A DNA stretch of 64,000 nt from an uncultured Candidatus Saccharibacteria bacterium (GTDB lineage Bacteria; Patescibacteriota; Minisyncoccia; Phycocordibacterales; UBA12088), in the NCBI GenBank assembly GCA_964459635.1, contig CAYWMQ010000001.1:8342-72341 (forward strand), given 5' to 3'. The notes beneath the pieces were generated by a model. That model did not search any database and had not been told where the DNA came from. It saw nothing but the letters and a program-made list of their open reading frames with translations. Of this stretch, positions 12,930 to 30,911 are shown piece by piece (the first letter of the stretch is position 1; each line of letters opens with the position of its first letter). A program made the translations under genes and the position numbers.

Positions 12930-14345
12930 ATGGTCGCACGTATTTTACTGCTTCTTGTGCTGTTTCAGCCTATCTACGTGGCGTTCGGCATGGAGCTCGG
13001 CGATGCAGCAAGCAGTGAGCAGGGAGTAGTGAGCAGTGTCGAAAACGACGCCGAAACCACCAACGAGCAAAGTACTGAGACGAATGCGCAGGATGCTATG
13101 AGCAGTACGGAAAATGCTGCAGATATGGCGAATGTCACTGATGGTGATGGCGCAGACCCGGTAACCACTACGAGTTCGGACAGAGCTGACGCTGGGCCAA
13201 TAGACACCGATGAGTCTGCGACGAATGCGGACGAAGATGCCGCTACGAGCACGGTACCCGATACTCAGTCAGAGATACCTGCCGACGAGGCGAGCAAGGA
13301 AGAGGAAGGGGCGGAAGGCGCTACAAGTACCGATTCAGTGACGAGCGATATAGACGAAAACGCGACCGAGGAGAGCAATGAGGGTACGGAAGCGAGTACG
13401 GAGATTGAAACGCAGACCAACACCGCAAGTAGTAGCGAAGCCTCAGCAACGTCGACAGAGGAAGAAACAATGGAGCCTGTGCTCCCGCCAGCGCCGCTTG
13501 CCCACAGTACCTCATCATACACGTTTGGCGTGGGTGACTGTACGCTCGTAGCAAACGGTGAGTTCTATTGCATCGCTGCGAGCGCCGACCGGGTTGTGAA
13601 TGGCGACCCGCGCGTTTATGCCGAGAAGGACCGTGAGGGTGACAGGGAGATCTACTACTTTGACGGCGTGGAGGTGCATCGCATTACCAACAACGGCTAC
13701 GATGACTTCGCGCCCGTCTTCGACGAGGACACGAAGCGCATCGCGTGGAACGCGATGATACAGGACCGCACACAGGTGATGCTGCACGATATTCAAACGC
13801 AGACCACTCGGCAGGTAACACAGAGCAGTAACACAGCAGGTACACCGCACCTCTTCCACGACTCACTCGTGTGGCAGGAGTGGGTGGACACCAATTGGGA
13901 AGTCTTTCGTGCGGACGCGGATGCGCTCGCGGCGGGGGCTGACGCGTCGGCAGAGCGCCTAACGGACAATGTAGTGCACGATATGTTCCCGCGCGCATAC
14001 GAGGGGCTTATTACATGGCAGCGCGAAAAGGGGCACTCATGGGAGGTGGTAGTGTACGATCTGCGGACACAAAAAGAGCACGCGCTTGAAAAGGAGGAAG
14101 ACACTAAGTACGAAAACCCCCGCTTCGTCCTTTTGTTCGACTCGCGCCATGAAAACGGGGACGTGGAGACGGTGGGCTACGACCTCGACTCGGGTGAAAT
14201 GATGGAGCTCGGCACCAAACCGCGAAGTATCCCCGCACATCCCCAGACGCCGCGCGACGAGACGGAGGATGCACTCCCGAGCGTAAGTCCCATGAATAGC
14301 GTAAAGCCTCTGCGTGATGATGCGGAGGGTACGGATGAGCTATGA
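12930..14345 (+). CDS. secreted acidic protein with a C-terminal PD40/TolB-like beta-propeller repeat region
   Basis: Start chosen at ATG 12930 (MVARILLLLVLFQPIYVAFG, a signal peptide). The track's 12567 extension is Arg-rich and lies over an AT-rich promoter-like island. About 180 aa of the sequence is a D/E/S/T-rich linker. This is followed by REGDREIYYFDGVEVHRITNNGYDDFAPVFDEDTKRIAW-type repeats. The stop overlaps the giant-gene start (ATGA). Confidence 0.55.
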   Translation: MVARILLLLVLFQPIYVAFGMELGDAASSEQGVVSSVENDAETTNEQSTETNAQDAMSSTENAADMANVTDGDGADPVTTTSSDRADAGPIDTDESATNADEDAATSTVPDTQSEIPADEASKEEEGAEGATSTDSVTSDIDENATEESNEGTEASTEIETQTNTASSSEASATSTEEETMEPVLPPAPLAHSTSSYTFGVGDCTLVANGEFYCIAASADRVVNGDPRVYAEKDREGDREIYYFDGVEVHRITNNGYDDFAPVFDEDTKRIAWNAMIQDRTQVMLHDIQTQTTRQVTQSSNTAGTPHLFHDSLVWQEWVDTNWEVFRADADALAAGADASAERLTDNVVHDMFPRAYEGLITWQREKGHSWEVVVYDLRTQKEHALEKEEDTKYENPRFVLLFDSRHENGDVETVGYDLDSGEMMELGTKPRSIPAHPQTPRDETEDALPSVSPMNSVKPLRDDAEGTDEL

Positions 14346-17300
14346 GTATGCGCGAATGGTGGAGCGGCTATGATGTTTTCGGGCACGTAAAGCGTGTGTA
14401 CTTTCTCGTGCGCGGCGTTTTCAACCGATGTGCTCAGGCTCTGCGCGCGCGCATAAGTGCTGTGGGCGCAGCCACTATAGGCAGCACGCTCGTGCTTGTG
14501 GGCATTTTCATTTTTGCGTGGCCGCAGCTTGCGCCCTTCCTTGGCTTAGGTGAAGCGCAAGCGGCGACGTATCGCTTCCAGACAGGGTACTACATGGGTG
14601 ACGGCGGCTCGAAAGCTATCACGGGGCTTGGCTTCACGCCGGACTTGGTCATCATTAAAGCGGACACTGCTGCGGGCACCGGCGCCATCATGAAAACGAG
14701 CGTTATGCCACAGAACTCCGTGGCGTACCTCGGTGTCGCCACTGCAGACGATGTGACGGGGCAGATCCAACTTACGTCGGACGGCTTCGTGGTGACGGGC
14801 GCGCTCACAAACACCGCCGGCGCCCGGCATGTGTACATGGCGTTCGGTGGCTCAGATTGCGGCGCCGGTGGCCAGTTTTGCGTCGGTGCATTTACGGGTG
14901 ATGGTAATGCGAGCCAAGTGGTATCAACGGGTTTTTCTCCGGATCTGGTCTTGGCGAAACCAACAACGGCCGTACTTGCCTCTTGGCGCTCAAGCAGCAT
15001 GGCAGACAATGTAGGTCAGTACTTCGCTGCGGCAGCGGAAGACAACACCGGTACGCTCTTTACGACGCTTGACGGTAATGGCTTTTCGGTTGGTAGTGGC
15101 AATAACACACCTGCCACCACCTACCATTTTGTTGCGTTTAGAGAAGCGAGCGGTTCAATCGACGTTGGTACTTACACAGGAGACGGGCTGGACAATCGTG
15201 CGCTTACCGGTGTTGGCTTCGCGCCAAATTTTGTCTTTTCGAAGCAAACAGGTGCGTCGAGCACGATCTTTAACGTAAGCGAGACCTACGGCGATTACTC
15301 GGGCTTTTTCATTGACGCAGCGAACGCGGCTGATGCGATTCAGTCGCTCGACAGTGACGGTTTTTCCCTCGGTACGAGCGTCACAGCAAATGCCTCAGGT
15401 GTGCCGTACCATTACGTCGCGTTTGGCGGCGCTATTGCACACACTGCGAGCGGCACATTTAAGGCTACGTCAGGCACATACACAGGGAATGGTACCGGGC
15501 AAACCATTGTGGATCTTGCGTTTGAGCCTGACCTGGTGGTGATAGCCGCGAGCGGTACGCAGTATGCCGTGTTTAGGACGCGCGATATGGGTAATGATTC
15601 GACCGCGTTTCTTGCGAACGCGGCGGCTAACTTTGCAGGCGGCATTACGACCTTAGGTACAAACAGTTTTACTCTCGGTAACAGTGCCACCGTGAACGCC
15701 GCCGGGGTCGAGTATGTCTGGACCGCCTACGGCAATGCATGGGATCCGGAGACACACACAGGCGCAGCGGACTTCACGGTGGGCATGTACTATGGCAACG
15801 GTCTTGATAACAGGGACATCACTCGACTGCCGTTTGCTCCGGACTTTGTCGCAGTGAAAAGGAGCGGCGCTACCCAAGGTGTGTGGCGTTCGAGCGAGCA
15901 CAGCGGCGACTTGTCCAGCTTCTTCCATGGCGCTGCGGAGGCGGCAAACAATATCCAAGCGCTCACATCCGATGGCTTTGAGGTGGGTACTGCGGCAAAC
16001 GTAAACACCGCCGCCAATCTCTACCCGTTTTTTGCGTTTGCTACGAGCTCGTCTTTTGCGGTCGGGACATACAGCGGTACGGGTGTGGCGCAGACCGTTG
16101 CGACACCTCTGGCGCCGGCACATGTGTGGGTGAAGCAGACGGGAGCTGTAGCAGGCGTGCTTAAGACAGCGAGCACTACCGGCTCGACTTCTCTCTCCTT
16201 TGCTAACACCGCGCCGCAACAAGACGGCATTGAACAGCTTACCGGCAGCGGCTTTCTCGTAGGGGCAAGCACCACGGTGAACGCGGTTGGCGTCAACAAC
16301 TATCGGTACGCTGCGTGGCGCGATACCGACGTGCGCGGTACCTCTACCTATCGCATGCAGACGGGGTATTTCGTGGGAAACGGAGGCAGTAAGGATATCA
16401 CGGGCCTCGGCTTTACGCCGGACTTGGTCATTGTGAAAGCTGACACAAACGCCGGTACGGGAGCCACGTGGAAGTCAAGCGCAATGCCGCAGCAGGTCAC
16501 CGCACACTTGGGAAGTGCGACGGCGGACAACACGGCGGGTCAGATCACCCTCATTGAGGGCGGTTTTCGGGTAGCAGGCGCAAATACGAGTGCCGCTAAT
16601 ACCAGGTATACATATGTCGCCGTGGGCGGCAGCGACTGCTCTGCAAGCGGCACCTTCTGTGTGGGCAGGTTTACCGGCACAGGGGCGGCGACGCTTTCAC
16701 TCACGACAGGCTTCTCGCCCGAACTCGTGTGGGTGAAACGCTCCACGGCGGTACTGCCCTCTTGGCGCTCGAGCACGATGGCGGTCAATGTGGCAAACTT
16801 TTTCAGCGCAACGGCGGAAGACGCAACCGGGGCCTACTTCACTACGCTCGACGGCAGCGGCTTTACGGTTGGCACCACAAACAATGCAAGTGGAGGCTCG
16901 TATTACTTTGTGGCGTTTTCGGAAGCCGCAGGTGCTGTCGACGTGGGTACGTACACCGGCAACTTGACCGTGGACAGATCAATAGCAGGTGTAGGCTTTT
17001 CTCCCGACTGGGTATTTACCAAACAAACAGGTGCATCGGCCGCTGTCTACAACCAGCGTGAGTCATATGGTGACCACTCAAGCTATTTCGCGGACACCGC
17101 CAACCTCACGGACGCTATACAGGTACTGGAGGCAGACGGCTTCCAGGTGGGTGGTAACAGCACAGCACATGCAAACGGAGTGGTGTACCACTACGCCGCA
17201 CTCGGCGGCGCACTTGCACACGCGGCGAGTGGGACGTTCACCACCCTTTCGGGGTCGTACGTGGGCACCGGCGATGCCGGCCAAGTCACGGGACTGGGTT

Positions 17301-20300
17301 TTGCGCCCGACCTTGTCATCATCAAAGGTGACGTTGCTCAGTCCGGTGTGTTTGCGTCGAAGCTCATGGCGGGAGACTCTACGGCGTACCTCGATCAGGC
17401 CACCGCTAACTTTGCGGGCGGTATCACCGCACTCGGGACGGACGGTTTTTCGATCGGGACAAACGCGAGCGTGAACAGTGATGGGGTAACGTACTACTGG
17501 ACAGCGTACGGCAACGCCTGGAACCCGGAGACGCACCGCGGCGCTGCGGATTTTGCGCTCGGCGCACACTATGGCAACGGCATTGATGGGCGCGATGTCA
17601 CTCGGATACCGTTCAGCCCGGATCTCGTGGCATTGAAGCGCAACGGTGTAACGGGCGGAACGTGGCGTACGAGTGCACATGCCGGAGACGCGTCGAGCTT
17701 TTTTGCGGCCACCGCAGAGGGGGCAAACCGTGTGCAGGCATTGAACGCAGACGGATTTGAGGTTGGTACAAATGCGGAGGCAAACCTTGCAAACAACATC
17801 TACTGGTCGTTTGCGTTTGCCGAATCAGCCACGTTTGCGGTGGGGACCTACAGTGGTACAGGTGTAAGCCAGACCATTACTGTGGGCTTTCAGCCCTACC
17901 ACCTTTGGGTAAAGCATACCGGTGCCACACGCGGAGTTTCGCGTCCGTACGCCCTTGCGGGGGACGGTGCCTTGCCGTTCATTAGTGCCGGACTCGTGAG
18001 CGGCGCGATCTCGGCCTTTGCACCGACGGGTTTTGCCGTTGATGCCGCGGTGGAAACAAACACGAGTGGCGCGAACAACTACCGCTTTGCTGCTTGGAAG
18101 AAGAACGAGCTTGAGCAGACGCACTATCATTGGCGCTATGACGATGGCGACGAGGACGGCGCAAGCTCCGCGACGGGTGGGGCGGAAGATACGGCCCTGT
18201 CGGATGTGCGCGAGGGCTTGCCGTACCGTCTGCGTATCGGTCTTGCCAATATCGCGAGCGTTGCCGCCAGCTCCACAGGCTTTCGTATTGAGTTTGCTGA
18301 AAAAGGAGCAACCTGCGCAGCGGCTACGGGGTGGGCTCGCGTAGGTGATGCCGGTGGCGCATGGGACCTGTATGACTCACCCAACCTCACCCAAGGTGCG
18401 AACACCACCAACATACCGCTGTCCTCGGGCGGCGTGAGCGATGAAAACGACGACTTCATGTCACCGAATGGCGGCATTGCAGACACGGGTGATGAGACGC
18501 CTGCCTATGTGCTCGCGGCGTCCGAATTTGCGGAGCTTGAGTATGCCCTCACACCCACCGTGTACGCGACAAGTGCCGTAACGTACTGTTTCCGTGTGAC
18601 GGCGCAAGGTACCCCGCTCTCTATGTACTTGCAGTACGCTGAAGCGACATTCCGCACACATGTCACCGCCACCACGCTCGGGACACAGGTGAGTGAGGTC
18701 ATCGTGCCATCAAGCTCAGCATACCTGGGTGGGGCATTTGTGCTCACCGATGCGACCACCGACAGTACGCACTCCATTACGGACATTGAAGTGACCGAAA
18801 GCGGCACCGTGGACGCTGCGGCCCACCTCGACAATATCAAGCTCTTTTATGAGTACGACACGAGCGCTCCATACGACTGCGCGAGCGAGTCGTACGGAGG
18901 CAGTGAAGCACAGTACGGTCTTACTGATAGTGACGGCTTTAGCGGCCAAAACGGCACCTCGGCATTTGCCGGGTCTGTCTCCGCAAGTAGTACTCAAGCG
19001 GTGTGTTTGTACCCGGTGTTGGATGTTGTTGCGGGTGCGCTCTCCGGGCAAACAGTTGAGCTCTCGCTCGCGAGCGCAAGCGCCGTTACGGTGGCGGGCG
19101 GAGAAGTGCCGCGCTTTGCCGAGACGCCTCTGCACCTTTCGGGCGACACGACACTTGTAAGCCCGCTCCTTACGGCTACTCACTACCACTGGCGTTCAGA
19201 CGATGGCTCGGAAGCGACAGCGGGGTCCGCCACAGGTGGCATAGAAGATACGCCACTGCTCAACCTTACGAAAGGTGCGGGTCGGCGGCTTCGTATAGGT
19301 GTGTCAAATGAAGGGCTTGCAACATCGAGCGCAACGTCGTTCCGCGTCGAGTATGCGGAACGCAGCGGTACCTGCAGTGCGACCACAAACGGCTGGACCG
19401 ATGTCGGTGCTGTTGGTGGCGCATGGGATATGTATGACAGTGCCAATCTCACCGAAGGCGCCGATACCACCAACATAGCGCTCGCAAGCGGCGGCGTGAC
19501 GGATGAGAACACTACGTTCCTCACCGCAAACGGCGGCGTTCGAGATACCACATCACAAACGGGGGCGCTTTCGCTCGGGCCCGCCGAACATACCGAGCTT
19601 GAGTACTCGCTCGTGGCACTCGCCGGTGCGTCCGATGGTACGAGTTACTGTTTCCGCGTGACGGATGCGGGAACTCCGCTTCCGGCTGCAGCGGCGCATC
19701 CCGAGGTATTGGTTGCTGCCGACGTGCTGGTATCGAGTTTGGGCACGCATGTAACCGCGGTGCGGGCCGGCGCAAGCGATACGTACATCGCGGGTCCATG
19801 GGTGGTGACCGATCAAGGTGGTGGCCGCAACGTGACCGGTGTGCTTCTCAGCGAAACGGGCTCCGTAGATGGTGCGAACAATCTTGCGAATATTCGTCTT
19901 TACTACGATCTTGATACTTCGGCGCCGTACACCTGTGCGAGCGAATCCTATGCGGCCGGTGATAGCCAGTTTGGTGCCACCTCCACTGCGTTCAGTGCCG
20001 CAAACGGTACCACGAGCTTCAGTGGCTCGGTGGGCATTTCCGGGACGGCGACATTGTGTCTCTATGCAGTGCTTGATGTGCGTAGTACTGCAGAGAACGG
20101 AGAAACCATCACGCTCAGCATTGCGAACCCAAGCACCGACGTGGCCGTGTCTTCGGGTACCGTCAATCCGAACGACCGCGTGGCACCTTCCGGCACTACA
20201 ACCATAGAGCGACAGACGGTGACCCAAGAGCATTACCACTTCAGGCGTGATGATGGCGGAGAGGCGGCGGCAAGTTCTGCGACGGGCGGAAGTGAAGATA

Positions 20301-23300: not shown

Positions 23301-24415
23301 CCAGTGTTGAAAGTGTTGCCGCGGCGTCATTCGGCTGCGCGATCGATGTGGCCGATGGGGTGGCGGTCGCGCCTTCGCTCCCCGAGACCATTGGCTGGGT
23401 CGCCTTCTCAAGTGGCACCTTTAAGAGCAATGGTGTTCGTGTGGATGCAACCTCCACCAATGCAAGTATTACCGGATGGACGGACACGCCGTGGTATGAG
23501 TATGTCTGGCCGTACGGCACATGGACCAGCGCGCCGGGGCTGCTCGCAAGCAGGCAGACGCGCAACGGCTCCGATGGCGGTTGGGTGCGTTACGGGGCTT
23601 TGACAAGCCAAGGTGTGCGGCTCGCCGTGGATGAAGCGGATGGCGGCAACAGGTCGCACATCGCTGAAAGCGTGGGCATGCTCGGCTTTTCCCGGAGCGG
23701 CACGCTTTACAGGGCCACTACGTCCGCGAGTACGTTCGAGGCGTATGCGAACAAGGAGTTTGAGTTTACGCTGCGTCACCACGATGCGCGGCCCGGCCGG
23801 ACCTACTACTTCCGACTCTATGACGTGGCAGCCGACAGTCCTGTTACCGCAAGTACGACCCAGGAGGGGTACCCCTCACTTCTAACCGAGAGCGGCACAC
23901 TTTCATTTTCGGTGTTCGGCGTGGCTTCCGGTGTGTCTACCGAGGGTGTGACGACAGATATCACCACCACTCCTCTTTCCGTACCGTTCGGGTCGCTGCC
24001 GCTTGGTACACCGAAGACTGCAGCCCAACGGCTCGTGGTGAGTACAAATGCCGGGCAGGGGTACCAGGTGCTCGCGTTCGAGGTTGGCGCGTTTGAGGCC
24101 GGCGTTGGTGCGAGTATTGCGGATGTGACGGGCACCAACGAGGTCCCGCTCGCGTGGAGTACCGCGTGCGATGTGGGTACATCAAGCTGCTACGGCTACC
24201 ACACCGGCGACGATACACTGTCCGGCGGCTCGCTTCGCTTCTTGCCTGACGACACATACGCCGCCCTTACCAACAGCCCGAAGGAGGTGGCATGGAGCAG
24301 TATACCCGTCACGGCGGAGAGTACAGACATTATATATAGAGTGCGTGCGGGGGCGGGCCAAGAGGCTGGTCACTACGAAAGCAAGATCTCGTACGTGGTC
24401 GTGCCGGTGTTTTAG
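14342..24415 (+). CDS. giant repeat-containing surface protein (3357 aa)
   Basis: Single uninterrupted ORF. N-terminal TM anchor AATIGSTLVLVGIFIFAWPQLAPFLGLGEAQA. Two tandem ~590-aa blocks, each built from ~95-aa TGxGFxPDLV..K repeats. Five ~300-aa W-rich modules (HYHWRxDDG...RLRIG...YCFRVT). A C-terminal Gly/Trp-rich lectin-like region. It ends in TAG. Confidence 0.85.
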   Translation: MSMREWWSGYDVFGHVKRVYFLVRGVFNRCAQALRARISAVGAATIGSTLVLVGIFIFAWPQLAPFLGLGEAQAATYRFQTGYYMGDGGSKAITGLGFTPDLVIIKADTAAGTGAIMKTSVMPQNSVAYLGVATADDVTGQIQLTSDGFVVTGALTNTAGARHVYMAFGGSDCGAGGQFCVGAFTGDGNASQVVSTGFSPDLVLAKPTTAVLASWRSSSMADNVGQYFAAAAEDNTGTLFTTLDGNGFSVGSGNNTPATTYHFVAFREASGSIDVGTYTGDGLDNRALTGVGFAPNFVFSKQTGASSTIFNVSETYGDYSGFFIDAANAADAIQSLDSDGFSLGTSVTANASGVPYHYVAFGGAIAHTASGTFKATSGTYTGNGTGQTIVDLAFEPDLVVIAASGTQYAVFRTRDMGNDSTAFLANAAANFAGGITTLGTNSFTLGNSATVNAAGVEYVWTAYGNAWDPETHTGAADFTVGMYYGNGLDNRDITRLPFAPDFVAVKRSGATQGVWRSSEHSGDLSSFFHGAAEAANNIQALTSDGFEVGTAANVNTAANLYPFFAFATSSSFAVGTYSGTGVAQTVATPLAPAHVWVKQTGAVAGVLKTASTTGSTSLSFANTAPQQDGIEQLTGSGFLVGASTTVNAVGVNNYRYAAWRDTDVRGTSTYRMQTGYFVGNGGSKDITGLGFTPDLVIVKADTNAGTGATWKSSAMPQQVTAHLGSATADNTAGQITLIEGGFRVAGANTSAANTRYTYVAVGGSDCSASGTFCVGRFTGTGAATLSLTTGFSPELVWVKRSTAVLPSWRSSTMAVNVANFFSATAEDATGAYFTTLDGSGFTVGTTNNASGGSYYFVAFSEAAGAVDVGTYTGNLTVDRSIAGVGFSPDWVFTKQTGASAAVYNQRESYGDHSSYFADTANLTDAIQVLEADGFQVGGNSTAHANGVVYHYAALGGALAHAASGTFTTLSGSYVGTGDAGQVTGLGFAPDLVIIKGDVAQSGVFASKLMAGDSTAYLDQATANFAGGITALGTDGFSIGTNASVNSDGVTYYWTAYGNAWNPETHRGAADFALGAHYGNGIDGRDVTRIPFSPDLVALKRNGVTGGTWRTSAHAGDASSFFAATAEGANRVQALNADGFEVGTNAEANLANNIYWSFAFAESATFAVGTYSGTGVSQTITVGFQPYHLWVKHTGATRGVSRPYALAGDGALPFISAGLVSGAISAFAPTGFAVDAAVETNTSGANNYRFAAWKKNELEQTHYHWRYDDGDEDGASSATGGAEDTALSDVREGLPYRLRIGLANIASVAASSTGFRIEFAEKGATCAAATGWARVGDAGGAWDLYDSPNLTQGANTTNIPLSSGGVSDENDDFMSPNGGIADTGDETPAYVLAASEFAELEYALTPTVYATSAVTYCFRVTAQGTPLSMYLQYAEATFRTHVTATTLGTQVSEVIVPSSSAYLGGAFVLTDATTDSTHSITDIEVTESGTVDAAAHLDNIKLFYEYDTSAPYDCASESYGGSEAQYGLTDSDGFSGQNGTSAFAGSVSASSTQAVCLYPVLDVVAGALSGQTVELSLASASAVTVAGGEVPRFAETPLHLSGDTTLVSPLLTATHYHWRSDDGSEATAGSATGGIEDTPLLNLTKGAGRRLRIGVSNEGLATSSATSFRVEYAERSGTCSATTNGWTDVGAVGGAWDMYDSANLTEGADTTNIALASGGVTDENTTFLTANGGVRDTTSQTGALSLGPAEHTELEYSLVALAGASDGTSYCFRVTDAGTPLPAAAAHPEVLVAADVLVSSLGTHVTAVRAGASDTYIAGPWVVTDQGGGRNVTGVLLSETGSVDGANNLANIRLYYDLDTSAPYTCASESYAAGDSQFGATSTAFSAANGTTSFSGSVGISGTATLCLYAVLDVRSTAENGETITLSIANPSTDVAVSSGTVNPNDRVAPSGTTTIERQTVTQEHYHFRRDDGGEAAASSATGGSEDTPRTGMQPGVVERLRIALANQGGTTTLASTYRLEYAEKVATCAAVGAWQTVGSPGAVWSLAVSEELTDGSDTTNIAVATGGVTDEQSTFLSSNNGVHNGRATSGALVLDSDEFVEYEYVLEPNVEAAAGASYCFRVALASGAALDAYDTYPEATLAAERDFFVQRGVVDIANGTSTVSLVAGTHYTAPRASTSAFIRITNAMYTGAGATAGGGNQNANSVTTSILNPSDILTGVTFRRAGAVNSTRIYWELVEYVGPPGGDNEFIVRAQERVAYGAADTSVSRSGVPGVADDGQVAVFITGQENPAGTLTDYHAGISTAAWTGASDTATFTRGAANGYAAALSFAVIEWTGANWRVQRVEHTHGVAGANETEVIVPVNDTSRAFLHTQKRVGVGQVDEFGHQVWLSGVGDVTFSIPATAASPGTHVSVAWVIENTQTNGSPMVVTRSNGTQAAGGAEPSTYPLSIGTTISATNNASIFMNVWGLGDTTNHPRAIMGAGITGTAFYELWISDTGSGRTYRTEVVDWPTAELSFEQYYYRWYEDNDALDPTDAWPSTSGVLGENTAITLMDEPPTAGDVLRLRTTVRVHGASLSRELRRFKLQYAARTTTCGAVASWYDIGDSASTTSLWRGYNASPADGTALSTDPPTVGDLNLSVSISGRAGTYEESNPTAINPYKASIGETIEYDWVLEPNNAPDKTTYCFRMVEEDGTEYLEYTHYPTLTTAGFEVAQHAWRWYDDADVVTPLVPLAATNTAPSNVALDNVFKLRVLLSEVAGKAGTGVKYKLQYSEYPDFSVVADVASADACAPGSRFCYTDGGGADTAQIQAAVLFGADSCSGGEGQGCGTHNELPYTPDIVGETGTTSVTAAGMVVTLAHTYDDPVFIVESVTGDPSGGAANRPAAAFLTATSTSSFTVRVGEPDDEPDTHGAETVAYLVMERGAYQLPAGPRVDANSTTTSAYRGSVVGGSAGTCTFVQAFDSAPVLVAALQSNNNTGSPDFLTASVESVAAASFGCAIDVADGVAVAPSLPETIGWVAFSSGTFKSNGVRVDATSTNASITGWTDTPWYEYVWPYGTWTSAPGLLASRQTRNGSDGGWVRYGALTSQGVRLAVDEADGGNRSHIAESVGMLGFSRSGTLYRATTSASTFEAYANKEFEFTLRHHDARPGRTYYFRLYDVAADSPVTASTTQEGYPSLLTESGTLSFSVFGVASGVSTEGVTTDITTTPLSVPFGSLPLGTPKTAAQRLVVSTNAGQGYQVLAFEVGAFEAGVGASIADVTGTNEVPLAWSTACDVGTSSCYGYHTGDDTLSGGSLRFLPDDTYAALTNSPKEVAWSSIPVTAESTDIIYRVRAGAGQEAGHYESKISYVVVPVF
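14564..18111 (+). repeat. intragenic tandem duplication (2 x ~1.77 kb) within the giant gene
   Basis: Residues from ATYRFQTGYYMGDGGSKAITGLGFTPDLVIIKAD... to NNYRYAAWRD are repeated as TSTYRMQTGYFVGNGGSKDITGLGFTPDLVIVKAD... to NNYRFAAWKK, with the same order of sub-repeats. Confidence 0.7.
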
Positions 24416-24474
24416 GGTGTGTATGAGTGCGCGTACACACGTGGCACAGTGGTATACTTGAGGTGCATCTTGCT

Positions 24475-27400
24475 ATGGGAGAGCGTGCCTATATAAAGAC
24501 AGAGGATGACCCGCTCGCCGGAAAGACGGTCCTTCAGCCGTACGTGTCTGAAGAAGTTCTGCGCGCCTTGTCCGAAGAGGAACTCTTGAACCAAGCGAAC
24601 GCTGCGCGTGTCGCCCTTGGGATGGCGCCATTGTCCGACACAGCGGACGCTGTACAAGCTGATCCACAGCGGAAAGAAGTGATAATTTTGGCTCTCGAAC
24701 GAAATCTTGCTAAGTTTCACGAAACTCAGCAAGGAGAGAGCGGCGATGCCGAGTTTGCCTATGTATACGACCCGCGCAATGGCAGAGGTGAATGGCTTTC
24801 GCGGGAGCAAGCATTGCGTGCAGGTTTCACTGAGCGTGCTGCTTCTGCGGACGATGCAGACGCGCTACGCGCACGTGCCGGAGAGTTGCTTGAACAGGCA
24901 AATCTCCTGAGATCTTCGCTGGTGGGAAACCAGAGCAAACAAAAGGCGCGTCTCGACGTTGCGATCGTGCGCCTTCAGGGGCTTTTGGAGGAAAGGCCAT
25001 CCGATATTGCTGCGCTTGAAGAAAGAGTGCGTGATCTTGAGGAGGAGGTAAGGCGGCAAGAACAGCCGGGCGAAAACCCAACTTCAGACGTACAAAACAA
25101 GAATCCTGCTATACGCGTGAATGAAAGGGACGTTGCGGCTTCTGAGGAAAAAGCTGCGGTTGAGCGACAGGAAGCAGAGCTTCGGGACCTATCAAAAAGA
25201 TTTGAAAGATTTGAAGTAGGCACGGTGTCCGGTGATCAAAACTATTCCCGCGACTATGACCGTGCAGAACATCTACTATTTGAGCTGGAAAAACGTCTGG
25301 AAGGCTCTTCAGAGCAGGTACGGCAAAGTGAGATTCGCCATTTAGAGCGTTTGATTGTAAAGCTTGAAAGAATGCAAGCATCAGCAAAGGCCGGACCTGG
25401 AGCTCCAGAGCCTGCGCCCACCCCTGCCCAAGAAGCGGATCCACACACTGCAGAACGCGCGCGAGCACGTGTATACGAAGAAGTGGCGATGGAAATACTC
25501 GCGCGACTACCCGAGGGCAACGATTGGGAGAAAGCGAAAAAAAGGTTCTTTACCGACGATTGGGAACGAATTACGCGCGAAGTGGGAAGCGAGAGTACCA
25601 CACCTGATTTGAAAAGGCTTATTGTGGAGTACGATCATTTGCGCGCATATGAATGGAACTTAAAAGAGCCGTCTTCGGGCGCAGCCCACACAGAGGCTGC
25701 GGAGCCTACCCCCGCTCCCACACCAGAAGCGGATCCTCACGCGAGCGAGCGTGCAGAGGCGCAGCAGCTCGAAGAAGAGGCGCAGCAGCTCATCGCTACG
25801 CTACCTACGGGCTACGACGCTGCAGATCTGAGCAAGCAGGGTGCGGAAAAAAGTTGGGAAGCGCTTGTGCGGAAAAGTGGCAGTCAAGCAAAGACTCCCG
25901 ACCTTACGGTGCTGCGTGACGCGCTGGAAGAGCTGCGCAGACTTGTTGCACATACGCCACCCAAGGCTCCGGAAAGCCCACATGCCGGATTCAAGATAGA
26001 AAAGGGCGGGAAGGCCGAGATCACGCGTCTGGAAAACTATGTTGCTCTGCGACTTGCTGAACTTCCGGTTACCACTGACGAAGAGAGGGCGCACCATGAC
26101 GTACTTATTGCTGAGTGGAAACATCTAAAAGAGCAGTATGGCTCACATGCAGCCAAACCGGAGTACGAGCACTTAAAAGACTTCGTACTCGCTCATTTGA
26201 AGCTGGGCGGGGTCACGACAGAAGCTGAGCTTGATGCCGTGCTCGGCGTCGTGTCGGACAAGAGCGCACTTGGCACCGAGACCGAGGCTGAGCGCATTAC
26301 AGCGCTCGCACAGGAGCGGGAAGAGAATCACCTTCGGACGCGCGAGGCATATGGCGCAGAAATTCGCGAGGCGCGAGAGAGGTACCAAGGCTACCGTAAG
26401 GAGCTTCTTGATGCGGAGGAAGCGTATCTTAATGCGGTTACGGCCCACCGGGAAGGCACCAAGTACTTTAAGGGGCTGCGCAACAGGCTCTTGCGCAACA
26501 CTGAGGGTCAGGAGCAGATCGCTAAGCTTGAAAGAGATATGCGAGCTGCGCAGGTGGAGTTTGAGACAAAGCTTAATGAAATGAAAGCTGAGCGCGCCGA
26601 ACGCCTGGGACTCACGCATCGCTTGCTTGAAATGAGCTACCAACGGCGGTTGGGTGGTGAGAACGATCCCGCCGCCCATCCGGAGCGCCGCAAAGCGCAG
26701 CGCGAGGCGAAATTTGCTGCGCTCCACGAAGCTCTGGTGCTGCGCTCTACTTCTACGATGCTGGAGCTTGCGCAGGGAATCGGCGGCAAGGAGGAGCTTG
26801 ATATCGCGGTGGCAAGCCGCGTGGGTGTGAGGAGGGAAGACTTGAGTGAAGGAACGCGGGATGCGTCCGGCGTGCTCACGCCCGAGGCACAGGTACGCGC
26901 CACCGCGCGCAAAGAGCACTGGGCGGAGCTTGAAAAAGCGGTCGGCGAACGCAAGGACCCCTCCCGCCTCGTGCGTACGTACAAGGCGGGGATGCGGTAT
27001 TACCGGAGCATACCAAAAGAAAAGCAGCTTGCCATACGTATGCTGGGTGGTGGTGCTGTAGGTCTCGTGGTGGGCGGTGGCGCAGGGGCGGCCGCGTACA
27101 TGGCGGCGCGCGCAGGCGCAGGCTTCTTCGGAGGTGCACTTATGGCGGGCGCCGTGTCAAAAAAACTTTTTGGAGCTACCGAGCGGCACATAGCTCGCAG
27201 TAAAAAGGGTATATTGGAGAGCGACACCATGACTCTTGCGGATAAACAGCACGAGTACATGGCCATGCGCAGGAGAGAGCGCAACATGAAGCGGGGCGCA
27301 ATGGCCCTCACAGGCGCAGCGGCATTTGCTGCCGGCGCATCCGCAGGACAGGCGGTAAACGAGGTTGCCATGAGCGGCCTTTCGCTTGAGTCCATCGGAC

Positions 27401-30312
27401 GTGGCGTGGTACACGGTGTGCCACGCACGGTTGAAGCGTGGAACAACAACGCGCACCGTGCATGGGATTATGCTACCGGGGAGACACCCGTCGCGCCCGC
27501 GGGAGCTGCCGGAGCCGCACCTGTGGAAGCGCCTCGCAGTGGAGCGACGCAAGCACCCGAGACACCACCCGACAGTGCGCATGTCGAAGTGCCGCCGGCC
27601 GGTGCGCCGCGCGCTCAGGCGGAGATCACGGGCCAAGGTGCATCAGTACAGGAGTTTGAGCGTATTCGAAAGGAAGGGTACGTCATTACGGAGGAACATG
27701 GCGCTCGCGTGTACACGCATCCGGATGGCATGCGCTACCATGTCTTTGGGAATGGGAACATGTACGCAGAGACCCTGAATGAGTCACCCTCTGCAGGGGA
27801 TGGGCACGCGGGTATCTCAAATTCACCAAAGGTCACTCTGGACAATCTGCCACCGGAGTTACGTGAGCATTTGGTGCGGCTCGTGCGTGTGCAAGTCTCA
27901 GAAGCTATTGAGGCGTACGGCGGCGGCATTGGTGCGGAAGAGCAAAAGCTGGTCCTGGAGGAGCTCGCCAAGGACGGTCTTACCGCGGACGATGCCTCGC
28001 GTGAGGCGGTGATGGAAGCACTGGCGCGAGTAAAAAACGGCATAGGAGACCGCCCGCGTACGTTTGAGCCCGGGCCTTCACGCGGCGCTGCGCCTGTCGC
28101 GCCCGATGAGGTACGTCCACTCGGCACGCGTACGGCGGCGGCGCCCGAAGCGCTGCATACGCGCGCCGCAGCGTCCAGCGTGCAAGAGGCATACGGTGTT
28201 GCGGATACAACAGGGAGCCGGAGCCAGCGCATCCTCAATAATTTGGAAAGCATGCGGCACACCTTTGCAGGTACGGGTTTCAAGGAAGGGGTAGCAACCA
28301 CAGCCTCACTTGACTACATTCTTAAGCAGGTCGAGTTACCTAAGAGTTCCATTTTCCCGCGCGCGAGCTTCCGCGGCGCATGGGGTGCGGTGGCGGACTT
28401 CCCGGCCTCACGAATATTCGACAGCCGGCCGGGCGCAGAGCTCCTGCTGCCCAACAGACAATGGGTCGCTATGAACCCGACCACAGAGGCTATGACCCGC
28501 AACTTCTTCGAGCAGGTGGATCATCGTGTGACCGGCGGTCGCCTCTTGCATAATGCCGACTACCTACGCGGCCGCAGTCTGGGCGATGTCATGCATGACT
28601 TCGAGCGCATACAGAAGGGGCAGGTACGCGTTGAGGACGTTCTGCGCCAGCGGATGGGGCGTGGTGCGGCTGTTGCAGCGGAGGCCGACACACGCGTACG
28701 CGACACCATGCCGCACGAACAGCCTGCAGCTGCGCGCGTACCGGAGGTGCAAGAGTCGCGTTCGGGCTTTGTGCCGGGGGAGCGCACGGCGGCGGCGAGC
28801 GCCACACTCTTGCGCAAGCTTGATGCGCTCGCCGGCCCGGATGTCTCGCATGTACGCGTGGCGGACCTTCTCGCACGTGAGCCGCAGACCCTCAGTGAGC
28901 AGGTGGCGCGCCAGTATGTTGTTGGCTTCCAAAACAATGGCATTACTGCAGATCCGAACCTGTCATTCAAGGAGTACCTCACACGTGCGGTTGACGAGTA
29001 TCTCGAACGCGGTTATTCGCCGCAAGAGCTTGAAATAGCAATGGACTGGCTTGAGGAGGAGTACGGCAAGGCATCGGCTCCGCGTTCGCGAGCAAAGTAT
29101 GCCGTGTATGATGCATCTGAGCCGGTGCCTTTCCGGCGCGCGGGTATTGAGGCTCCAGGCACGGTGAGTCCCGAGGCTATGCGTGCGTCAGAAGCGCTCA
29201 CGGGCCGATTGCGTGCGCTCGGTTCCGTAGAGCTCGGGCGCGACTCCGTGAGCGACGTGTACGCGGGCGACAACAGGGTGAGCGAGCTACTTGGCTCGAA
29301 GCCGCGCAGTGCGGGGGACTACGTGGCACAACGCTTCGTGCAGCAGATGAAGGCGCAAGGCTTTGTCGCAGATGAGCGTTTGCCCTTTGAGCAGTACGCG
29401 CGTGAGGTTATTGACCAGTATCTGAAAAAAGGAGGCACGGAGAACAACATTGCAATGCTTACCGGTATGTTCGAAGACGAAGAACTCGTGCAGCGCGCTC
29501 TTGCGCGCTCCGCGAGCGAGTCGTATCACGAAGCGGATGAAGCGCGCGAAGATGTGGCATACACACGCGAGCGCGGGAGTCGTCGCTCAGGTGGGCAAAC
29601 GTCGCGGACGGGCGTGCGTGGTACGTACCACGGCGAGGCGGGTCCGTTAGAGGCGGATGGTCGTTTTAAGGTGGAGTTTCGCTCGCGTAACCCGCAAGCT
29701 CCGGAACTGCGCATCAGGTCGGGAGGACGTTATTATACACAAGCAGTTGAACGTGTTGAGGCATCTGCTCGGGGTAGTACTCAGTACAAAGGCTGGCTTG
29801 AGTACCCTGGGTCTGCGCTCGAACTTATGAATAGGGACGCGTCCTTTGCCAAGCACGTGTACGACGAACTGCGTGAAGCGGGTTGGGAGGGTCGTACGGG
29901 CAACCGATCGTCATGGAAAGTCTACCAGCTGCCCGATGCTGAAACACTGGCGCACACGTCTCCCCGTGAGCTTCTGGTGAGTGCGGAGGTGCAGGAACTG
30001 GAGGGTATGCGGAAGCAGGCACGTTATCTGGAGCACCACGATAGGGATCTGTACGGCAGATCACGCATTAACATGGGTCGCGATGGTAAGCTTCGCGGCA
30101 GCGGCTCGCTCTTTGAAGAGCGCGAGGGGTCGCGCAACAGAGGCCGGATTGACTCGCATGAGCGACAAGCGCGGCGTGAAACAGACGCTCGCAGTAGGCG
30201 GGAGTTTAGCCGCAAGATGGACAAGATACGCCGCGATACTGACAAGTTGCGGAGCGATCGCAAGACGATGCGCGACATACAGCGCATGAAGCAAGATCAG
30301 CGCAGACATTAA
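24475..30312 (+). CDS. large coiled-coil protein with a central glycine-zipper membrane segment and an Arg-rich C-terminus (1945 aa from this start)
   Basis: ATG 24475 with GAGGTG 9 nt upstream and TATACT at 24453-24458; the track's GTG 24427 would lie upstream of that -10. The N-terminal ~850 aa are E/R/K/A-rich coiled-coil. TM segments GGGAVGLVVGGGAGAAAYMAARAGAGFFGGALMAGAV and AMALTGAAAFAAGASAG. Two ~75-aa internal repeats. The C-terminus reads RRETDARSRREFSRKMDKIRRDTDKLRSDRK. Confidence 0.65.
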   Translation: MGERAYIKTEDDPLAGKTVLQPYVSEEVLRALSEEELLNQANAARVALGMAPLSDTADAVQADPQRKEVIILALERNLAKFHETQQGESGDAEFAYVYDPRNGRGEWLSREQALRAGFTERAASADDADALRARAGELLEQANLLRSSLVGNQSKQKARLDVAIVRLQGLLEERPSDIAALEERVRDLEEEVRRQEQPGENPTSDVQNKNPAIRVNERDVAASEEKAAVERQEAELRDLSKRFERFEVGTVSGDQNYSRDYDRAEHLLFELEKRLEGSSEQVRQSEIRHLERLIVKLERMQASAKAGPGAPEPAPTPAQEADPHTAERARARVYEEVAMEILARLPEGNDWEKAKKRFFTDDWERITREVGSESTTPDLKRLIVEYDHLRAYEWNLKEPSSGAAHTEAAEPTPAPTPEADPHASERAEAQQLEEEAQQLIATLPTGYDAADLSKQGAEKSWEALVRKSGSQAKTPDLTVLRDALEELRRLVAHTPPKAPESPHAGFKIEKGGKAEITRLENYVALRLAELPVTTDEERAHHDVLIAEWKHLKEQYGSHAAKPEYEHLKDFVLAHLKLGGVTTEAELDAVLGVVSDKSALGTETEAERITALAQEREENHLRTREAYGAEIREARERYQGYRKELLDAEEAYLNAVTAHREGTKYFKGLRNRLLRNTEGQEQIAKLERDMRAAQVEFETKLNEMKAERAERLGLTHRLLEMSYQRRLGGENDPAAHPERRKAQREAKFAALHEALVLRSTSTMLELAQGIGGKEELDIAVASRVGVRREDLSEGTRDASGVLTPEAQVRATARKEHWAELEKAVGERKDPSRLVRTYKAGMRYYRSIPKEKQLAIRMLGGGAVGLVVGGGAGAAAYMAARAGAGFFGGALMAGAVSKKLFGATERHIARSKKGILESDTMTLADKQHEYMAMRRRERNMKRGAMALTGAAAFAAGASAGQAVNEVAMSGLSLESIGRGVVHGVPRTVEAWNNNAHRAWDYATGETPVAPAGAAGAAPVEAPRSGATQAPETPPDSAHVEVPPAGAPRAQAEITGQGASVQEFERIRKEGYVITEEHGARVYTHPDGMRYHVFGNGNMYAETLNESPSAGDGHAGISNSPKVTLDNLPPELREHLVRLVRVQVSEAIEAYGGGIGAEEQKLVLEELAKDGLTADDASREAVMEALARVKNGIGDRPRTFEPGPSRGAAPVAPDEVRPLGTRTAAAPEALHTRAAASSVQEAYGVADTTGSRSQRILNNLESMRHTFAGTGFKEGVATTASLDYILKQVELPKSSIFPRASFRGAWGAVADFPASRIFDSRPGAELLLPNRQWVAMNPTTEAMTRNFFEQVDHRVTGGRLLHNADYLRGRSLGDVMHDFERIQKGQVRVEDVLRQRMGRGAAVAAEADTRVRDTMPHEQPAAARVPEVQESRSGFVPGERTAAASATLLRKLDALAGPDVSHVRVADLLAREPQTLSEQVARQYVVGFQNNGITADPNLSFKEYLTRAVDEYLERGYSPQELEIAMDWLEEEYGKASAPRSRAKYAVYDASEPVPFRRAGIEAPGTVSPEAMRASEALTGRLRALGSVELGRDSVSDVYAGDNRVSELLGSKPRSAGDYVAQRFVQQMKAQGFVADERLPFEQYAREVIDQYLKKGGTENNIAMLTGMFEDEELVQRALARSASESYHEADEAREDVAYTRERGSRRSGGQTSRTGVRGTYHGEAGPLEADGRFKVEFRSRNPQAPELRIRSGGRYYTQAVERVEASARGSTQYKGWLEYPGSALELMNRDASFAKHVYDELREAGWEGRTGNRSSWKVYQLPDAETLAHTSPRELLVSAEVQELEGMRKQARYLEHHDRDLYGRSRINMGRDGKLRGSGSLFEEREGSRNRGRIDSHERQARRETDARSRREFSRKMDKIRRDTDKLRSDRKTMRDIQRMKQDQRRH

Positions 30313-30323
30313 CCCCACCGCAC

Positions 30324-30722
30324 ATGAACAACGATGACACACAAGAAGACGCCGTACACCCGCTCTTTGCCGAGCTTGGGCTTGAGGAGATGACACCTGA
30401 GGAGCAAGCGGAGACGCTCACGTCTGTGGGAGAGGTGGTATTTCAGGGCGTGATGCTGCGGGTGATGCGCGTCTTAAGCGAAGAAAAGCAAGACGCGCTG
30501 TCCGCGCTCTTCGACGCGAGCACCGAAGACCCCGACTCCGAGGAAAAGCGTGCTGCGATATACGCGTTTATCACGCACGAGGTGCCACAGTACGACGACC
30601 TGGTCGAGGAGGAGCTTGATGCGCTATACGAGACCTACAGCGGAAATCTTGAGGAACTGAGCGCCATAAGCGAAGCAGTCGGTACTGCGGACGCTGCCGT
30701 ACGCCCGGACGAACAAGTGTAG
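30324..30722 (+). CDS. small acidic hypothetical protein (132 aa)
   Basis: ORF 11 nt after the previous stop. D/E-rich, with no recognisable motif. Confidence 0.45.
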   Translation: MNNDDTQEDAVHPLFAELGLEEMTPEEQAETLTSVGEVVFQGVMLRVMRVLSEEKQDALSALFDASTEDPDSEEKRAAIYAFITHEVPQYDDLVEEELDALYETYSGNLEELSAISEAVGTADAAVRPDEQV

Positions 30723-30830: not shown

Positions 30831-30898
30831 TTGCGACGCCACACATCGTGCGTGTGTGGGTCGCAATGCCTATTTCGACAGTCAGTTGAAATAGGCAT
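30831..30898 (+). promoter_or_regulatory. two adjacent hairpins in the leader of pepA
   Basis: TTGCGACGCCACACA-tcgtgcg-TGTGTGGGTCGCAA (30831-30866) and ATGCCTATTTCGA-cagtc-AGTTGAAATAGGCAT (30866-30898), ending 13 nt before ATG 30912. Confidence 0.4.
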
Positions 30899-30911
30899 AA
30901 CACTACCCCCT

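Follow-up and report, generated by a model that had tools for sequence, protein, structure and literature searches.

A probably modular cell-surface locus of Patescibacteria, interpreted as a variant WxL/WxLIP-type surface complex

The four genes described here are part of a wider cell-surface locus common to many ultra-small CPR/Patescibacteria. A variant form of the WxL/WxLIP-type surface complex is the interpretation that suits the locus best and, judged from its sequence, it is probably organised as modules with at least two transcription units rather than as one operon. Taken as a whole, the reading towards which we lean is that of a modular cell-envelope display locus of Patescibacteria (Paceibacteria-type), in which a giant secreted protein is docked to WxLIP-like proteins.

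Organisation of the locus

In the window, the whole 64,000-nt stretch of DNA analysed, four open reading frames lie in the same direction on the plus strand, at 12567/12930-14345 (G1), 14342-24415 (the giant), 24475-30312 (g3) and 30324-30722 (g4). Homologs of all four are kept in other genomes, indicating that they are real genes. An earlier note on this DNA had described them as a probable ~18-kb operon. Its four reading frames and their junctions, an ATGA overlap of 4 nt (14342-14345), a 59-nt spacer (24416-24474) and an 11-nt spacer between g3 and g4, were found as claimed when the sequence was read, but the start assigned to the first gene, the transmembrane (TM) segment of the giant and the coiled coil of g3 did not hold up. 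Upstream, a P-type ATPase gene (9910-12483, minus strand) is separated from G1 by a 170-nt divergent spacer.

A TolB-fold propeller protein is the conserved partner of the giant

The first gene had been taken to begin at Met 12930. The 92 residues preceding this position contain motifs conserved among homologs (YTLVL/HTIVL..R, ARGSP and DLLVRFGIDS..GRMVAR), placing the real start at the ATG at 12654, which gene callers also use. The resulting 563-aa protein (12654..14345, plus strand) starts with a basic, conserved cytoplasmic region of ~92 aa. One TM helix (from ~12930) leads into a stalk of ~170 aa, acidic and of low complexity, which is followed by a TolB-type beta-propeller domain (13482-14342, plus strand). 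The AF2 model of G1 (pLDDT 83) gave TolB as its top Foldseek match (E 7.7e-9), and at the sequence level G1 stayed below threshold for PD40 (15.1 vs 20.9 bits) as well as for TIGR02800 and TIGR04275. A promoter-like site, TTGATA-16-AAAAAT (12597..12624, plus strand), a consensus match only, lies 29 nt before the corrected start.

We found 84 G1 homologs. Of ~40 informative GTDB loci, ~36 have G1 directly 5' of the giant, as do all five loci of an independent sample drawn from the G1 side; wherever gene calls exist, the two are separated by 5-42 nt or overlap slightly. The proposed coupling of a PD40/TolB-like protein to the giant is thus upheld by fold and by gene order, and G1, a membrane-anchored TolB-fold propeller protein, is shown to be a conserved-core partner of the giant.

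The giant itself (3357 aa; 14342..24415, plus strand) opens with a signal-peptide-like N-terminus (residues 1-72). Self-comparison revealed twelve ~100-aa DUF7483/DUF7361 modules arranged as two 593-aa super-repeats (residues 69-1260), then three 352-aa 'HYHWR' repeats (residues 1253-2300); conservation is highest in a core at residues 2517-2836. Pfam DUF7483 matched the protein at 147.7 bits. Giant homologs occur in 54 GTDB loci and have residues ~1250-3357 in common. The N-terminal hydrophobic segment, previously regarded as a TM helix, is followed by an AxA motif conserved in 14 aligned giants (AQA|A in the window), and looks like a cleavable Sec signal peptide, not a permanent TM anchor.

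Downstream genes encode WxLIP-like proteins

Three genes of one family, F1, follow at 32347-36200 on the plus strand. F1a (32347..33699; F1 HMM E 7e-107) carries a signal peptide ahead of a pair of Ig-like domains, with a TM helix and a tail rich in Pro and Ala behind them. F1b (477 aa; 33659..35092; E 3e-135) matched Pfam WxLIP_PGBD at E 0.035, and F1c (362 aa; 35112..36200; E 2e-98) is the first row of the F1 alignment (A3) behind the Pfam, PDB-profile and hhalign comparisons. The family is present at 48/54 loci, mostly directly 3' of the giant. Pfam WxLIP_PGBD matched 37 of its 62 members (best E 9.6e-10), the F1 profile matched PDB EfmWxLIP1 at E 3.3e-5, and hhalign against genuine Firmicute WxLIPs returned 97.1% probability with E 5.8e-11 over 274 columns spanning signal peptide, PGBD, HBD and TM. 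Taken singly, the window's own F1 proteins matched WxLIP_PGBD at E 0.035 or not at all, and the WxLIP link therefore rests on the family profiles. These profile comparisons establish homology between the F1 family and the WxL-interacting proteins of Firmicutes.

The earlier note had proposed that the four genes encode a dedicated export, anchoring or stalk apparatus. A domain search of the four proteins found no export-machinery domain, with no ATPase, channel or secretin-like domain among them, and the F1 genes, which lie outside the interval flagged at the time, are the likeliest anchor candidates for the giant. A 119-aa protein with two TM helices (36316..36675, plus strand) is a possible cluster member by position and topology only, with no BLAST link; small proteins of 125-163 aa follow the F1 genes in L014, L025, L032, L036 and L055, the one in L014 having the same two-TM layout. 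F1a also has a possible alternative start (ATG 32413, 6 nt after a GGTACACT box).

The C-terminal domain of the giant is a candidate docking domain

The last ~238 aa of the giant (residues 3120-3357; 23699..24412, plus strand; ending ...VVPVF) form a candidate docking domain. This domain is C-terminal in every case and is also found on secreted proteins of ~370-430 aa in related clusters. It is predicted to adopt a pilin-like Ig fold, in a model of moderate confidence (pLDDT 63.7) with TM-scores normalised to the query of 0.3-0.4. In sequence terms no WxL domain can be detected in it: Pfam WxL matched 0/59 members of the domain family, and hhalign against WxL gave E 0.034, which is background given that unrelated beta-sandwich controls gave 0.03-0.05. 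No WxL structure was among the fold matches of the model.

Such a domain could instead serve donor-strand-exchange polymerisation, the giant and its small paralogs building a pilus- or TasA-like fibre, with F1 proteins acting as chaperones or platforms and not as static anchors. The small proteins carrying the same C-terminal domain in many related clusters would fit this scheme. However, the window has no small paralog; no N-terminal donor strand was identified, the model is of the moderate confidence given above, and F1 is homologous to WxLIP and did not match any pilus chaperone significantly. We consider polymerisation unlikely.

The g3-g4 pair is probably a separate module

The g3 translation (1945 aa; 24475..30312, plus strand) has no signal peptide. 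It contains a Gly/Ala-rich region (~27028-27426, plus strand), weakly hydrophobic (Kyte-Doolittle 1.2-1.5) and conserved among homologs, and self-comparison resolved its flanks into charged helical repeat modules of ~70-95 aa with Pro/Gly linkers between them. The hydrophobic segment reported earlier is present, but the ~850 aa of coiled coil said to flank it found no support in a crude heptad-periodicity test, where the 28 residues flagged out of 1945 did not exceed what shuffled sequences gave. A search of 1.84 billion protein representatives returned six g3 matches; positional equivalents show weak collinear homology, with a common YYxK[IL]P motif and a Gly-rich segment. The acidic g4 protein (132 aa, net charge -28; 30324..30722, plus strand) is DUF5663-like, at 19.7 bits against a Pfam threshold of 23.7. 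Its homologs follow g3 in L007, L009, L012, L013, L067, L069 and L070, that is, in every genome with visible downstream sequence. By these comparisons, g3 and g4 form a pair that evolves fast and occurs in one lineage only.

The proposed four-gene synteny holds within the window's subclade, where the order G1-giant-g3-g4 is kept in L007, L009, L012, L013, L067 and L069 (L008 is truncated) amid differing flanking neighbours, but g3 and g4 are missing from ~40 genomes that retain G1-giant-F1. In L070, the pair comes after a large LamG-type protein that is non-homologous to the giant. Every g3 homolog with readable context lies directly 3' of a very large secreted protein.

The 59-nt spacer before g3 is not featureless. 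RNA folding placed a 9-bp hairpin straight after the giant's stop codon (24417..24440, plus strand), without a U-tract, and an extended −10-like box, TGGTATACT (24450..24458, plus strand), lies 16 nt before the g3 ATG. Hairpins or long inverted repeats are also found 3' of the giant's stop in L007, L009 and L012, the relatives examined for this feature. An equivalent box (TGGTATAGT, GGTACACT or GATATAAT) occurs in L007, L008, L009, L012, L013, L067, L069 and L070, such that the box stands 8-17 nt before the g3 ATG in 9/9 genomes, window included; across the window the pattern is not enriched (6 matches vs 4.3 expected). The box is a probable internal promoter with a very short leader. In L009, L012 and L013 the giant-to-g3 gap is at least 330 nt. 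The promoters and terminators are called from sequence motifs only, and transcription may read through from G1-giant into g3-g4.

At the other end, the 190-nt spacer between g4 and an M17 aminopeptidase gene (30912-32315) holds two tandem 13-14-bp hairpins (30832..30898, plus strand; fold z-score -5.3; no Rfam match), which probably close the g3-g4 unit, give the peptidase gene a structured 5' leader, or both. A consensus scan placed a promoter-like TTGACC-17-CACAAT at 30794-30822 (plus strand).

These data bear on the model of the earlier note, in which one operon encodes an export, anchoring or stalk apparatus and the glycine zipper of g3 pairs with the N-terminal TM of the giant. Tight spacing and shared direction speak for it, as do the G1-giant-g3-g4 order in every giant-family genome with g3 and the variable genes flanking that order. 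Set against these are the conserved box before g3 and the hairpin after the giant's stop, the long gaps in three relatives, the ~40 genomes lacking the pair, the LamG-type context in L070, the negative search for export domains, the signal-peptide-like N-terminus of the giant and the non-canonical heptad pattern of g3. We regard this model as quite improbable.

It is conceivable, though doubtful, that g3-g4 is functionally unrelated to the giant, an independently transcribed, fast-evolving pair kept only by descent in a narrow clade at a permissive insertion spot. The pair comes with a promoter-like box of its own, stands apart from the giant family in L070 and shares the spot with unrelated inserts (M17 peptidase, aminotransferase, 6-TM protein); M17 is syntenic in several of these genomes, so synteny by descent does persist there. 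What argues against this is the constant position of g3 homologs, wherever context was readable, directly after a very large secreted protein, while the upstream neighbourhoods were reshuffled.

Proposed mechanism

In the modular display locus that we favour, module 1 is the conserved pair of G1 and the giant. G1 is bitopic: its basic N-terminus lies in the cytoplasm, its stalk is acidic and disordered, and its TolB-fold beta-propeller is placed outside. The ATGA overlap couples its translation to that of the giant, a Sec-secreted chain of beta-sandwich modules 3357 aa long. Module 2, likewise conserved, consists of the three WxLIP-like paralogs, in each of which a signal peptide and a pair of Ig-like domains are joined to a TM anchor at the C-terminus. 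After cleavage of its signal peptide, the mature giant would be retained at the envelope via its pilin-like Ig domain. By beta-strand complementation, the mode proposed for the WxL-WxLIP pair in Firmicutes, this domain may dock to the WxLIP-like proteins anchored in the membrane. Its variable N-terminal modules would then face outward as an adhesin or host-contact fibre, and the G1 propeller could act as a dedicated extracytoplasmic partner, either holdase or co-receptor. The lineage-specific module 3, g3-g4, would have a separate promoter and would be an insertion that parts the giant from the WxLIP genes. In it, g3 is most likely a cytoplasm-facing membrane scaffold held by its Gly/Ala-rich hairpin, and g4 its small acidic partner. 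Against this reading as a whole speak the C-terminal domain, which is not recognisable as WxL and whose model is of moderate quality, the imbalance in the window of one protein bearing that domain to three WxLIP-like genes, the weak single matches of the window's F1 proteins to WxLIP_PGBD, and locus L071, where a G1-giant pair has no adjoining F1.

Comparison with known systems

With its predicted Ig-like fold, the C-terminal domain of the giant recalls donor-strand-exchange subunits (chaperone-usher pilins, TasA and the TLP-1 pond-water fibrils; PMC11494351, PMC9674648). It differs from them in ending a 3357-aa protein, sequence identity is <17%, and neither a donor strand nor a polymer was evident; confidence in the model is moderate.

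G1 resembles TolB of Tol-Pal in the fold of its C-terminal propeller, its best Foldseek matches all being TolB (E ~1e-8), with a weak local match to TIGR02800. Nevertheless, it reaches 26 bits where the equivalog cutoff is 343, the weak matches are confined to the propeller region, and outside this region G1 has an acidic stalk and a TM anchor. Its annotated neighbours showed no Tol-Pal domains.

Giant surface proteins have reportedly been described in CPR/DPANN and other episymbionts, and the likeness lies in very large secreted repeat proteins of reduced-genome, host-dependent microbes. The searchable literature held no link of Patescibacteria with WxL/WxLIP and no mention of DUF7483, DUF5663 or DUF7361; the propeller partner, the WxLIP-like partners and the common C-terminal domain thus seem undescribed in it.

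The closest parallel is with the WxL/WxLIP (Csc) cell-surface clusters of Bacillota (Siezen 2006, PMC1534035; Hassan & Williamson 2022/2023, PMC9772566, PMC10599100), for which EfmWxLIP1 structures are available (PDB 9i1y/9i25). These clusters have a "large WxL / small WxL / WxLIP" layout (PMC10599100), with a large WxL partner of ~500-1000 aa in those analysed (PMC9772566), and docking by strand complementation has been proposed for the Firmicute pair in the WxL/WxLIP literature. The CPR locus differs in its C-terminal domain, not a detectable WxL and with Y-x-V at the W-x-L positions, in a large partner of 2000-3400 aa, in an obligatory upstream beta-propeller protein and in the long cytoplasmic tails or LytR_C additions of the F1 proteins; the window contains no LPXTG protein or sortase motif. 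It also has one candidate partner with three WxLIP-like genes, whereas the published criterion asks for at least two WxL and one or more WxLIP, and so falls outside it. In both systems nonetheless, a protein that combines a signal peptide and a pair of Ig-like domains with a membrane-anchoring TM at its C-terminus is encoded beside a large secreted protein of several domains, the partner domain of which invariably lies at the C-terminus, and related CPR clusters add a small protein bearing the same C-terminal domain, mirroring the large/small WxL layout.

The G1-giant pair is the core of the locus

The earlier note had read the interval 12930-30722 as an ~18-kb operon of four genes, forming an export, anchoring or stalk apparatus for a giant protein. 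The four ORFs are, as described, co-directional on the + strand of the window (GC ~59%): gene 1, hereafter G1 (ORF translation of 12567/12930-14345), the giant (14342-24415, 3357 aa), g3 (24475-30312, 1945 aa) and g4 (30324-30722, 132 aa), joined by an ATGA overlap (14342-14345) and by spacers of 59 and 11 nt. Metagenome contigs from independent assemblies carry the same four genes with identical gene calls and, since all four have homologs elsewhere, none of them is a spurious ORF.

N-terminal alignment of homologs places the true start of G1 not at 12930 but at ATG 12654, giving a product of 563 aa; the conserved motifs HTIVL..R, ARGSP and DLLVRFGIDS..GRMVAR map upstream of ATG 12930. With this start, G1 is therefore an N-in membrane protein, which begins with a conserved basic segment in the cytoplasm (~92 aa), crosses the membrane by one TM helix and continues through an acidic low-complexity stalk (~170 aa) into a globular C-terminal domain (~280 aa). 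The AF2 model of the latter has a pLDDT of 83, and its top 20 Foldseek matches are all TolB (E 8e-9 to 4e-6). The description of G1 as PD40-like holds for the fold, a beta-propeller; in sequence, the PD40 match is sub-threshold (15.1 vs 20.9 bits), as is a TIGR04275 match. G1 is not a TolB ortholog: TIGR02800 gave 26 bits against a cutoff of 343, over the propeller part only, and whereas TolB has an N-terminal TolB domain, the N-terminus of G1 consists of the TM anchor and the acidic stalk. No Tol-Pal domains were found among the annotated neighbours of G1.

One genome per GTDB species was scanned with the C-terminal region of the giant as query, and ORFs were called and clustered in the resulting 54 loci (numbered below with the prefix L). 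Almost all are labelled Patescibacteria or member groups (Kaiser-, Yanofsky-, Azam-, Lloyd-, Falkowbacteria, "Parcubacteria", Paceibacteria). The one exception, L044 (JBLHGD010000004.1), is titled 'Candidatus Azotimanducaceae bacterium' and has the same cluster of G1, giant and F1, the downstream membrane-protein family described below; this contig is likely mis-binned or mislabelled. G1 lies directly 5' of the giant in ~36 of the ~40 loci that include the start of the giant and, when sampled from the G1 side, five of five G1 homologs are followed by a giant of 1821-3345 aa after a gap of 5-42 nt. This adjacency, observed from both query sides, makes the G1-giant pair the invariant core and bears out the proposed coupling of the two genes. 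Two tandem giants were seen in L018 (2065 and 2060 aa) and in L015 (at least 1476 and 2066 aa, the first being cut by the locus edge), which indicates duplication of the cargo gene inside one cluster; in L018, one G1 precedes them and F1 genes follow.

The giant has a probable signal peptide and an invariably C-terminal domain

The hydrophobic N-terminal segment of the giant, previously taken for a TM segment, precedes AQA↓A, and a corresponding AxA stands after the h-region in 14 of 14 giants aligned. The motif points to a cleavable signal peptide, which on these alignments appears more likely than a permanent anchor. A TM-anchored giant pairing with a glycine zipper in g3 was rejected as the leading model on account of the same cleavage-type motif.

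Beta-rich modules make up the giant as a chain, whose repeats were sought by protein self-comparison in chunks. Twelve DUF7483/DUF7361 units of ~100 aa each, arranged as two 593-aa super-repeats, occupy residues 69-1260 and are followed by three "HYHWR" repeats of 352 aa each (1253-2300), a conserved core (2517-2836) and a C-terminal domain of ~238 aa (3120-3357) ending in VVPVF. Pfam DUF7483 (PF24299) matches six stretches within residues ~75-1260, with 147.7 bits against a threshold of 27. This array is an add-on present in the closest relatives of the window only, residues ~1250-3357 being the core common to homologs.

The C-terminal domain, a proposed docking domain, is invariably C-terminal and nearly always ends in P-x-[FY]. 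It also occurs in secreted proteins of ~370-430 aa in related clusters, with a second, small protein of this kind in, for example, L005, L012, L014, L025, L036, L055 and L067. Searching 59 copies of the domain against Pfam gave no match, with WxL absent from the hits at E<=1. Alignment by hhalign to 11 genuine WxL domains gave E 0.034, and unrelated beta-sandwich controls gave 0.03-0.05. As the score equals that of the controls, we claim no homology to WxL, and membership by motif resemblance was dropped. At a relaxed threshold only, G-Y-Q-V aligns collinearly with G-W-x-L, and A..Y...I.Y.V..P with A..Y...L.W.L...P; we treat this apparent Y-x-V/W-x-L resemblance as a lead only. The AF2 model of the domain, of moderate quality (pLDDT 63.7) and built from a shallow 15-sequence alignment, resembles donor-strand-complemented fibre subunits, namely self-complemented FimA (E 7e-5) and TasA. 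In donor-strand-exchange pilins, an incomplete Ig fold is filled by a strand of another subunit, leading to polymerisation. An incomplete Ig fold taking a partner strand would fit the docking predicted for WxL-WxLIP pairs.

F1 proteins are WxLIP-like and proposed membrane anchors

Members of the F1 family (330-590 aa) have a signal peptide and a C-terminal TM, and are found in 48 of the 54 loci, usually directly 3' of the giant. Pfam WxLIP_PGBD (PF06030, formerly DUF916) is present in 37 of 62 members (best E 9.6e-10), and the F1 profile matches the PDB entries of EfmWxLIP1 (9i25, 9i1y) with E 3.3e-5. With reference WxL clusters (Enterococcus, Lactococcus, Listeria and Lactiplantibacillus plasmids), hhalign of the F1 profile against five genuine Firmicute WxLIPs gave a probability of 97.1% (E 5.8e-11, 274 columns), and the aligned columns span the whole architecture, from the signal peptide through PGBD (DUF916) and HBD (DUF3324) to the C-terminal TM helix. 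The window's own paralogs, F1a (32347-33699), F1b (33659-35092) and F1c (35112-36200), individually give weak WxLIP matches. All three lie outside 12930-30722; the best candidates for the anchoring components, which had been placed within that interval, are thus probably encoded outside it.

A 119-aa protein with two TM helices is encoded after the F1 genes (36316-36675). Proteins of 125-163 aa occupy this position in L014, L025, L032, L036 and L055, one in L014 having the same two-TM layout, and the 119-aa protein is possibly an extra conserved component of the cluster.

The g3-g4 pair is a lineage-restricted module

A word-index search with full-length g3 returned g3 alone, the candidates probably being swamped by low-complexity words, and HMMER, run exhaustively over 1.84 billion representatives, retrieved six proteins. 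g3 is a narrow, fast-evolving family; the proteins encoded at its position behind the giant in L007, L008, L009, L012 and L013 show weak, collinear homology. We did not recover the ~850 aa of coiled coil ascribed to it: a heptad test, being a crude a/d-position count with an uncalibrated predictor, flagged 28 of 1945 residues (shuffle mean 5, maximum 40). The flanks consist of charged repeat modules, three of ~95 aa and two of ~70 aa, with Pro/Gly-rich linkers between them. As for the suggested glycine-zipper membrane segment, the central Gly/Ala-rich region is real and conserved but weakly hydrophobic; a YYxK[IL]P motif is conserved alongside it in g3 homologs.

A small acidic DUF5663-like gene lies 3' of every g3 homolog with downstream sequence visible. 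The window's g4 scores 19.7 bits against DUF5663 (PF18908, threshold 23.7) and homologs in the same position have a lower score or none; the homolog in L070 has a precomputed DUF5663 hit, unmarked. The order giant-g3-g4 is kept in L067 and L069. In L070 (1-6166), the pair comes after a LamG-type large protein that does not belong to the giant family, which makes g3-g4 a separate module associated with more than one kind of large surface protein. Synteny of all four genes is maintained within the window's subclade; ~40 genomes with G1-giant-F1 have no g3-g4. The slot between giant and F1 also holds unrelated inserts (M17 aminopeptidase, aminotransferase, 6-TM protein).

The four genes probably do not form a single operon

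The G1-giant junction leaves no room for a promoter, and its 4-nt overlap implies translational coupling. A hairpin (24417-24440) follows the giant's stop, as do hairpins or long inverted repeats in L007, L009 and L012. An extended −10-like box, TGGTATACT, lies at 24450-24458, 16 nt 5' of the g3 ATG, and all eight other genomes have an equivalent box (TGGTATAGT, GGTACACT or GATATAAT) 8-17 nt before it. The box is thus kept in nine of nine genomes, in spacers that are otherwise unalignable and reach at least 330 nt in L009, L012 and L013. Given this box and the hairpin, the proposed single operon is probably wrong.

Downstream, the g4-M17 spacer (190 nt, 30723-30911) contains two tandem 13-14-bp hairpins (z = -5.3), with a promoter-like site just 5' of them (30794-30822) and no Rfam match, and a GGTACACT box lies at 32399-32406, 6 nt before a candidate F1a start (32413). 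A promoter/terminator consensus scan of the window gave counts near those of shuffled sequence, and tRNA and Rfam scans of the window were empty. The layout that appears most likely from the sequence is G1-giant / g3-g4 / M17 / F1a-c, and read-through between these units may occur. The −10-like boxes (GGTAYAST or TATAAT) stand only 6-17 nt from the g3 and candidate F1a start codons (window; L007-L013, L067-L070), a proximity that suggests leaderless or very-short-leader mRNAs.

A second giant lies downstream

The region 42639-62726 contains a second giant ORF (43278-62726, 6482 aa), and 24 nt 5' of it a gene for a 204-aa protein with an N-terminal TM, an acidic low-complexity stalk and no propeller; it looks like a counterpart of G1 that lacks this domain. 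One ~190-aa module is common to both giants (39.8% identity); the second has no C-terminal docking domain. Between them (37179-42346) are genes for an FGE-sulfatase-like protein, for proteins with a dockerin domain (38014-40020) and a cohesin domain (40769-42346), and for an HSP20 protein. Cohesin and dockerin genes resembling these are found upstream of G1 in the Kaiserbacteria-type loci L005 and L072, and such a pair, in the surface island of a CPR bacterium, may serve as a second attachment system.

Discussion

The best-supported reading is that this is an envelope display locus. The giant would be secreted and its C-terminal Ig-like domain held on the WxLIP-like membrane anchors; a dedicated propeller partner would accompany it, and this lineage would have added a further module, g3-g4, with a promoter of its own. 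Among the Pfam, TIGR, Rfam, homolog and structure searches described here, no result pointed to a phage or defence origin.

A life in attachment to host cells is assumed for CPR/Patescibacteria, whose giant proteins usually go unannotated. The locus offers a conserved parts list, comprising a propeller protein as partner, a giant whose fixed C-terminal domain is proposed to dock, and WxLIP-like membrane anchors, which recurs in at least 54 species-level genomes. Its tie to the experimentally studied Firmicute WxL/WxLIP complex suggests a concrete, testable anchoring mechanism, and WxLIP biology would reach beyond the Gram-positive lactic-acid bacteria and Listeria in which it has been described so far. 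In the searchable literature we found no paper tying Patescibacteria to WxL/WxLIP and no mention of DUF7483, DUF5663 or DUF7361.

A broader reading, to which we give tentative and rather doubtful credence, is that Patescibacteria and Bacillota share an ancient strand-complementation system, with WxLIPs anchored in the membrane that hold surface proteins through a C-terminal Ig-like domain. The Paceibacteria version would display host-contact fibres of 2000-3400 aa with a divergent Y-x-V form of the WxL domain, a TolB-fold propeller as obligatory co-factor and, in a single lineage, g3 and the DUF5663-like g4 as a scaffold pair of the cytoplasmic membrane. If true, this would be the first defined, testable attachment apparatus for such episymbionts.

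WxL domains are C-terminal and carry two Trp-x-Leu motifs, and an LPXTG protein and a sortase are common in their clusters without being obligatory. No protein of the present cluster has an LPXTG-type C-terminus and the TLxTC sortase motif is absent across the window, where two LPxTG-like pattern matches belong to an ABC-2 permease and an HSP20 protein. In Firmicutes, the genes next to those of WxLIPs encode two WxL proteins, a "large" one, in which the WxL domain is C-terminal, and a "small" one, and in AlphaFold predictions the WxL sandwich is completed by a strand of the WxLIP (PMC10599100). The large/small layout is mirrored by the giant and the ~370-430-aa proteins with the same C-terminal domain, and the signal peptide, PGBD, HBD and TM by which WxLIPs are recognised are all present in the F1 family. 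Where the Firmicute clusters were defined by one or more WxLIPs and two or more WxL proteins no further than four genes apart (PMC10599100), the window differs in having three WxLIP-like genes and only one protein with a candidate partner domain. We rate the locus as a variant of the WxL/WxLIP kind, in which homologous WxLIP anchors are combined with a partner domain not recognisable as WxL, a cargo of giant size and a propeller as co-factor.
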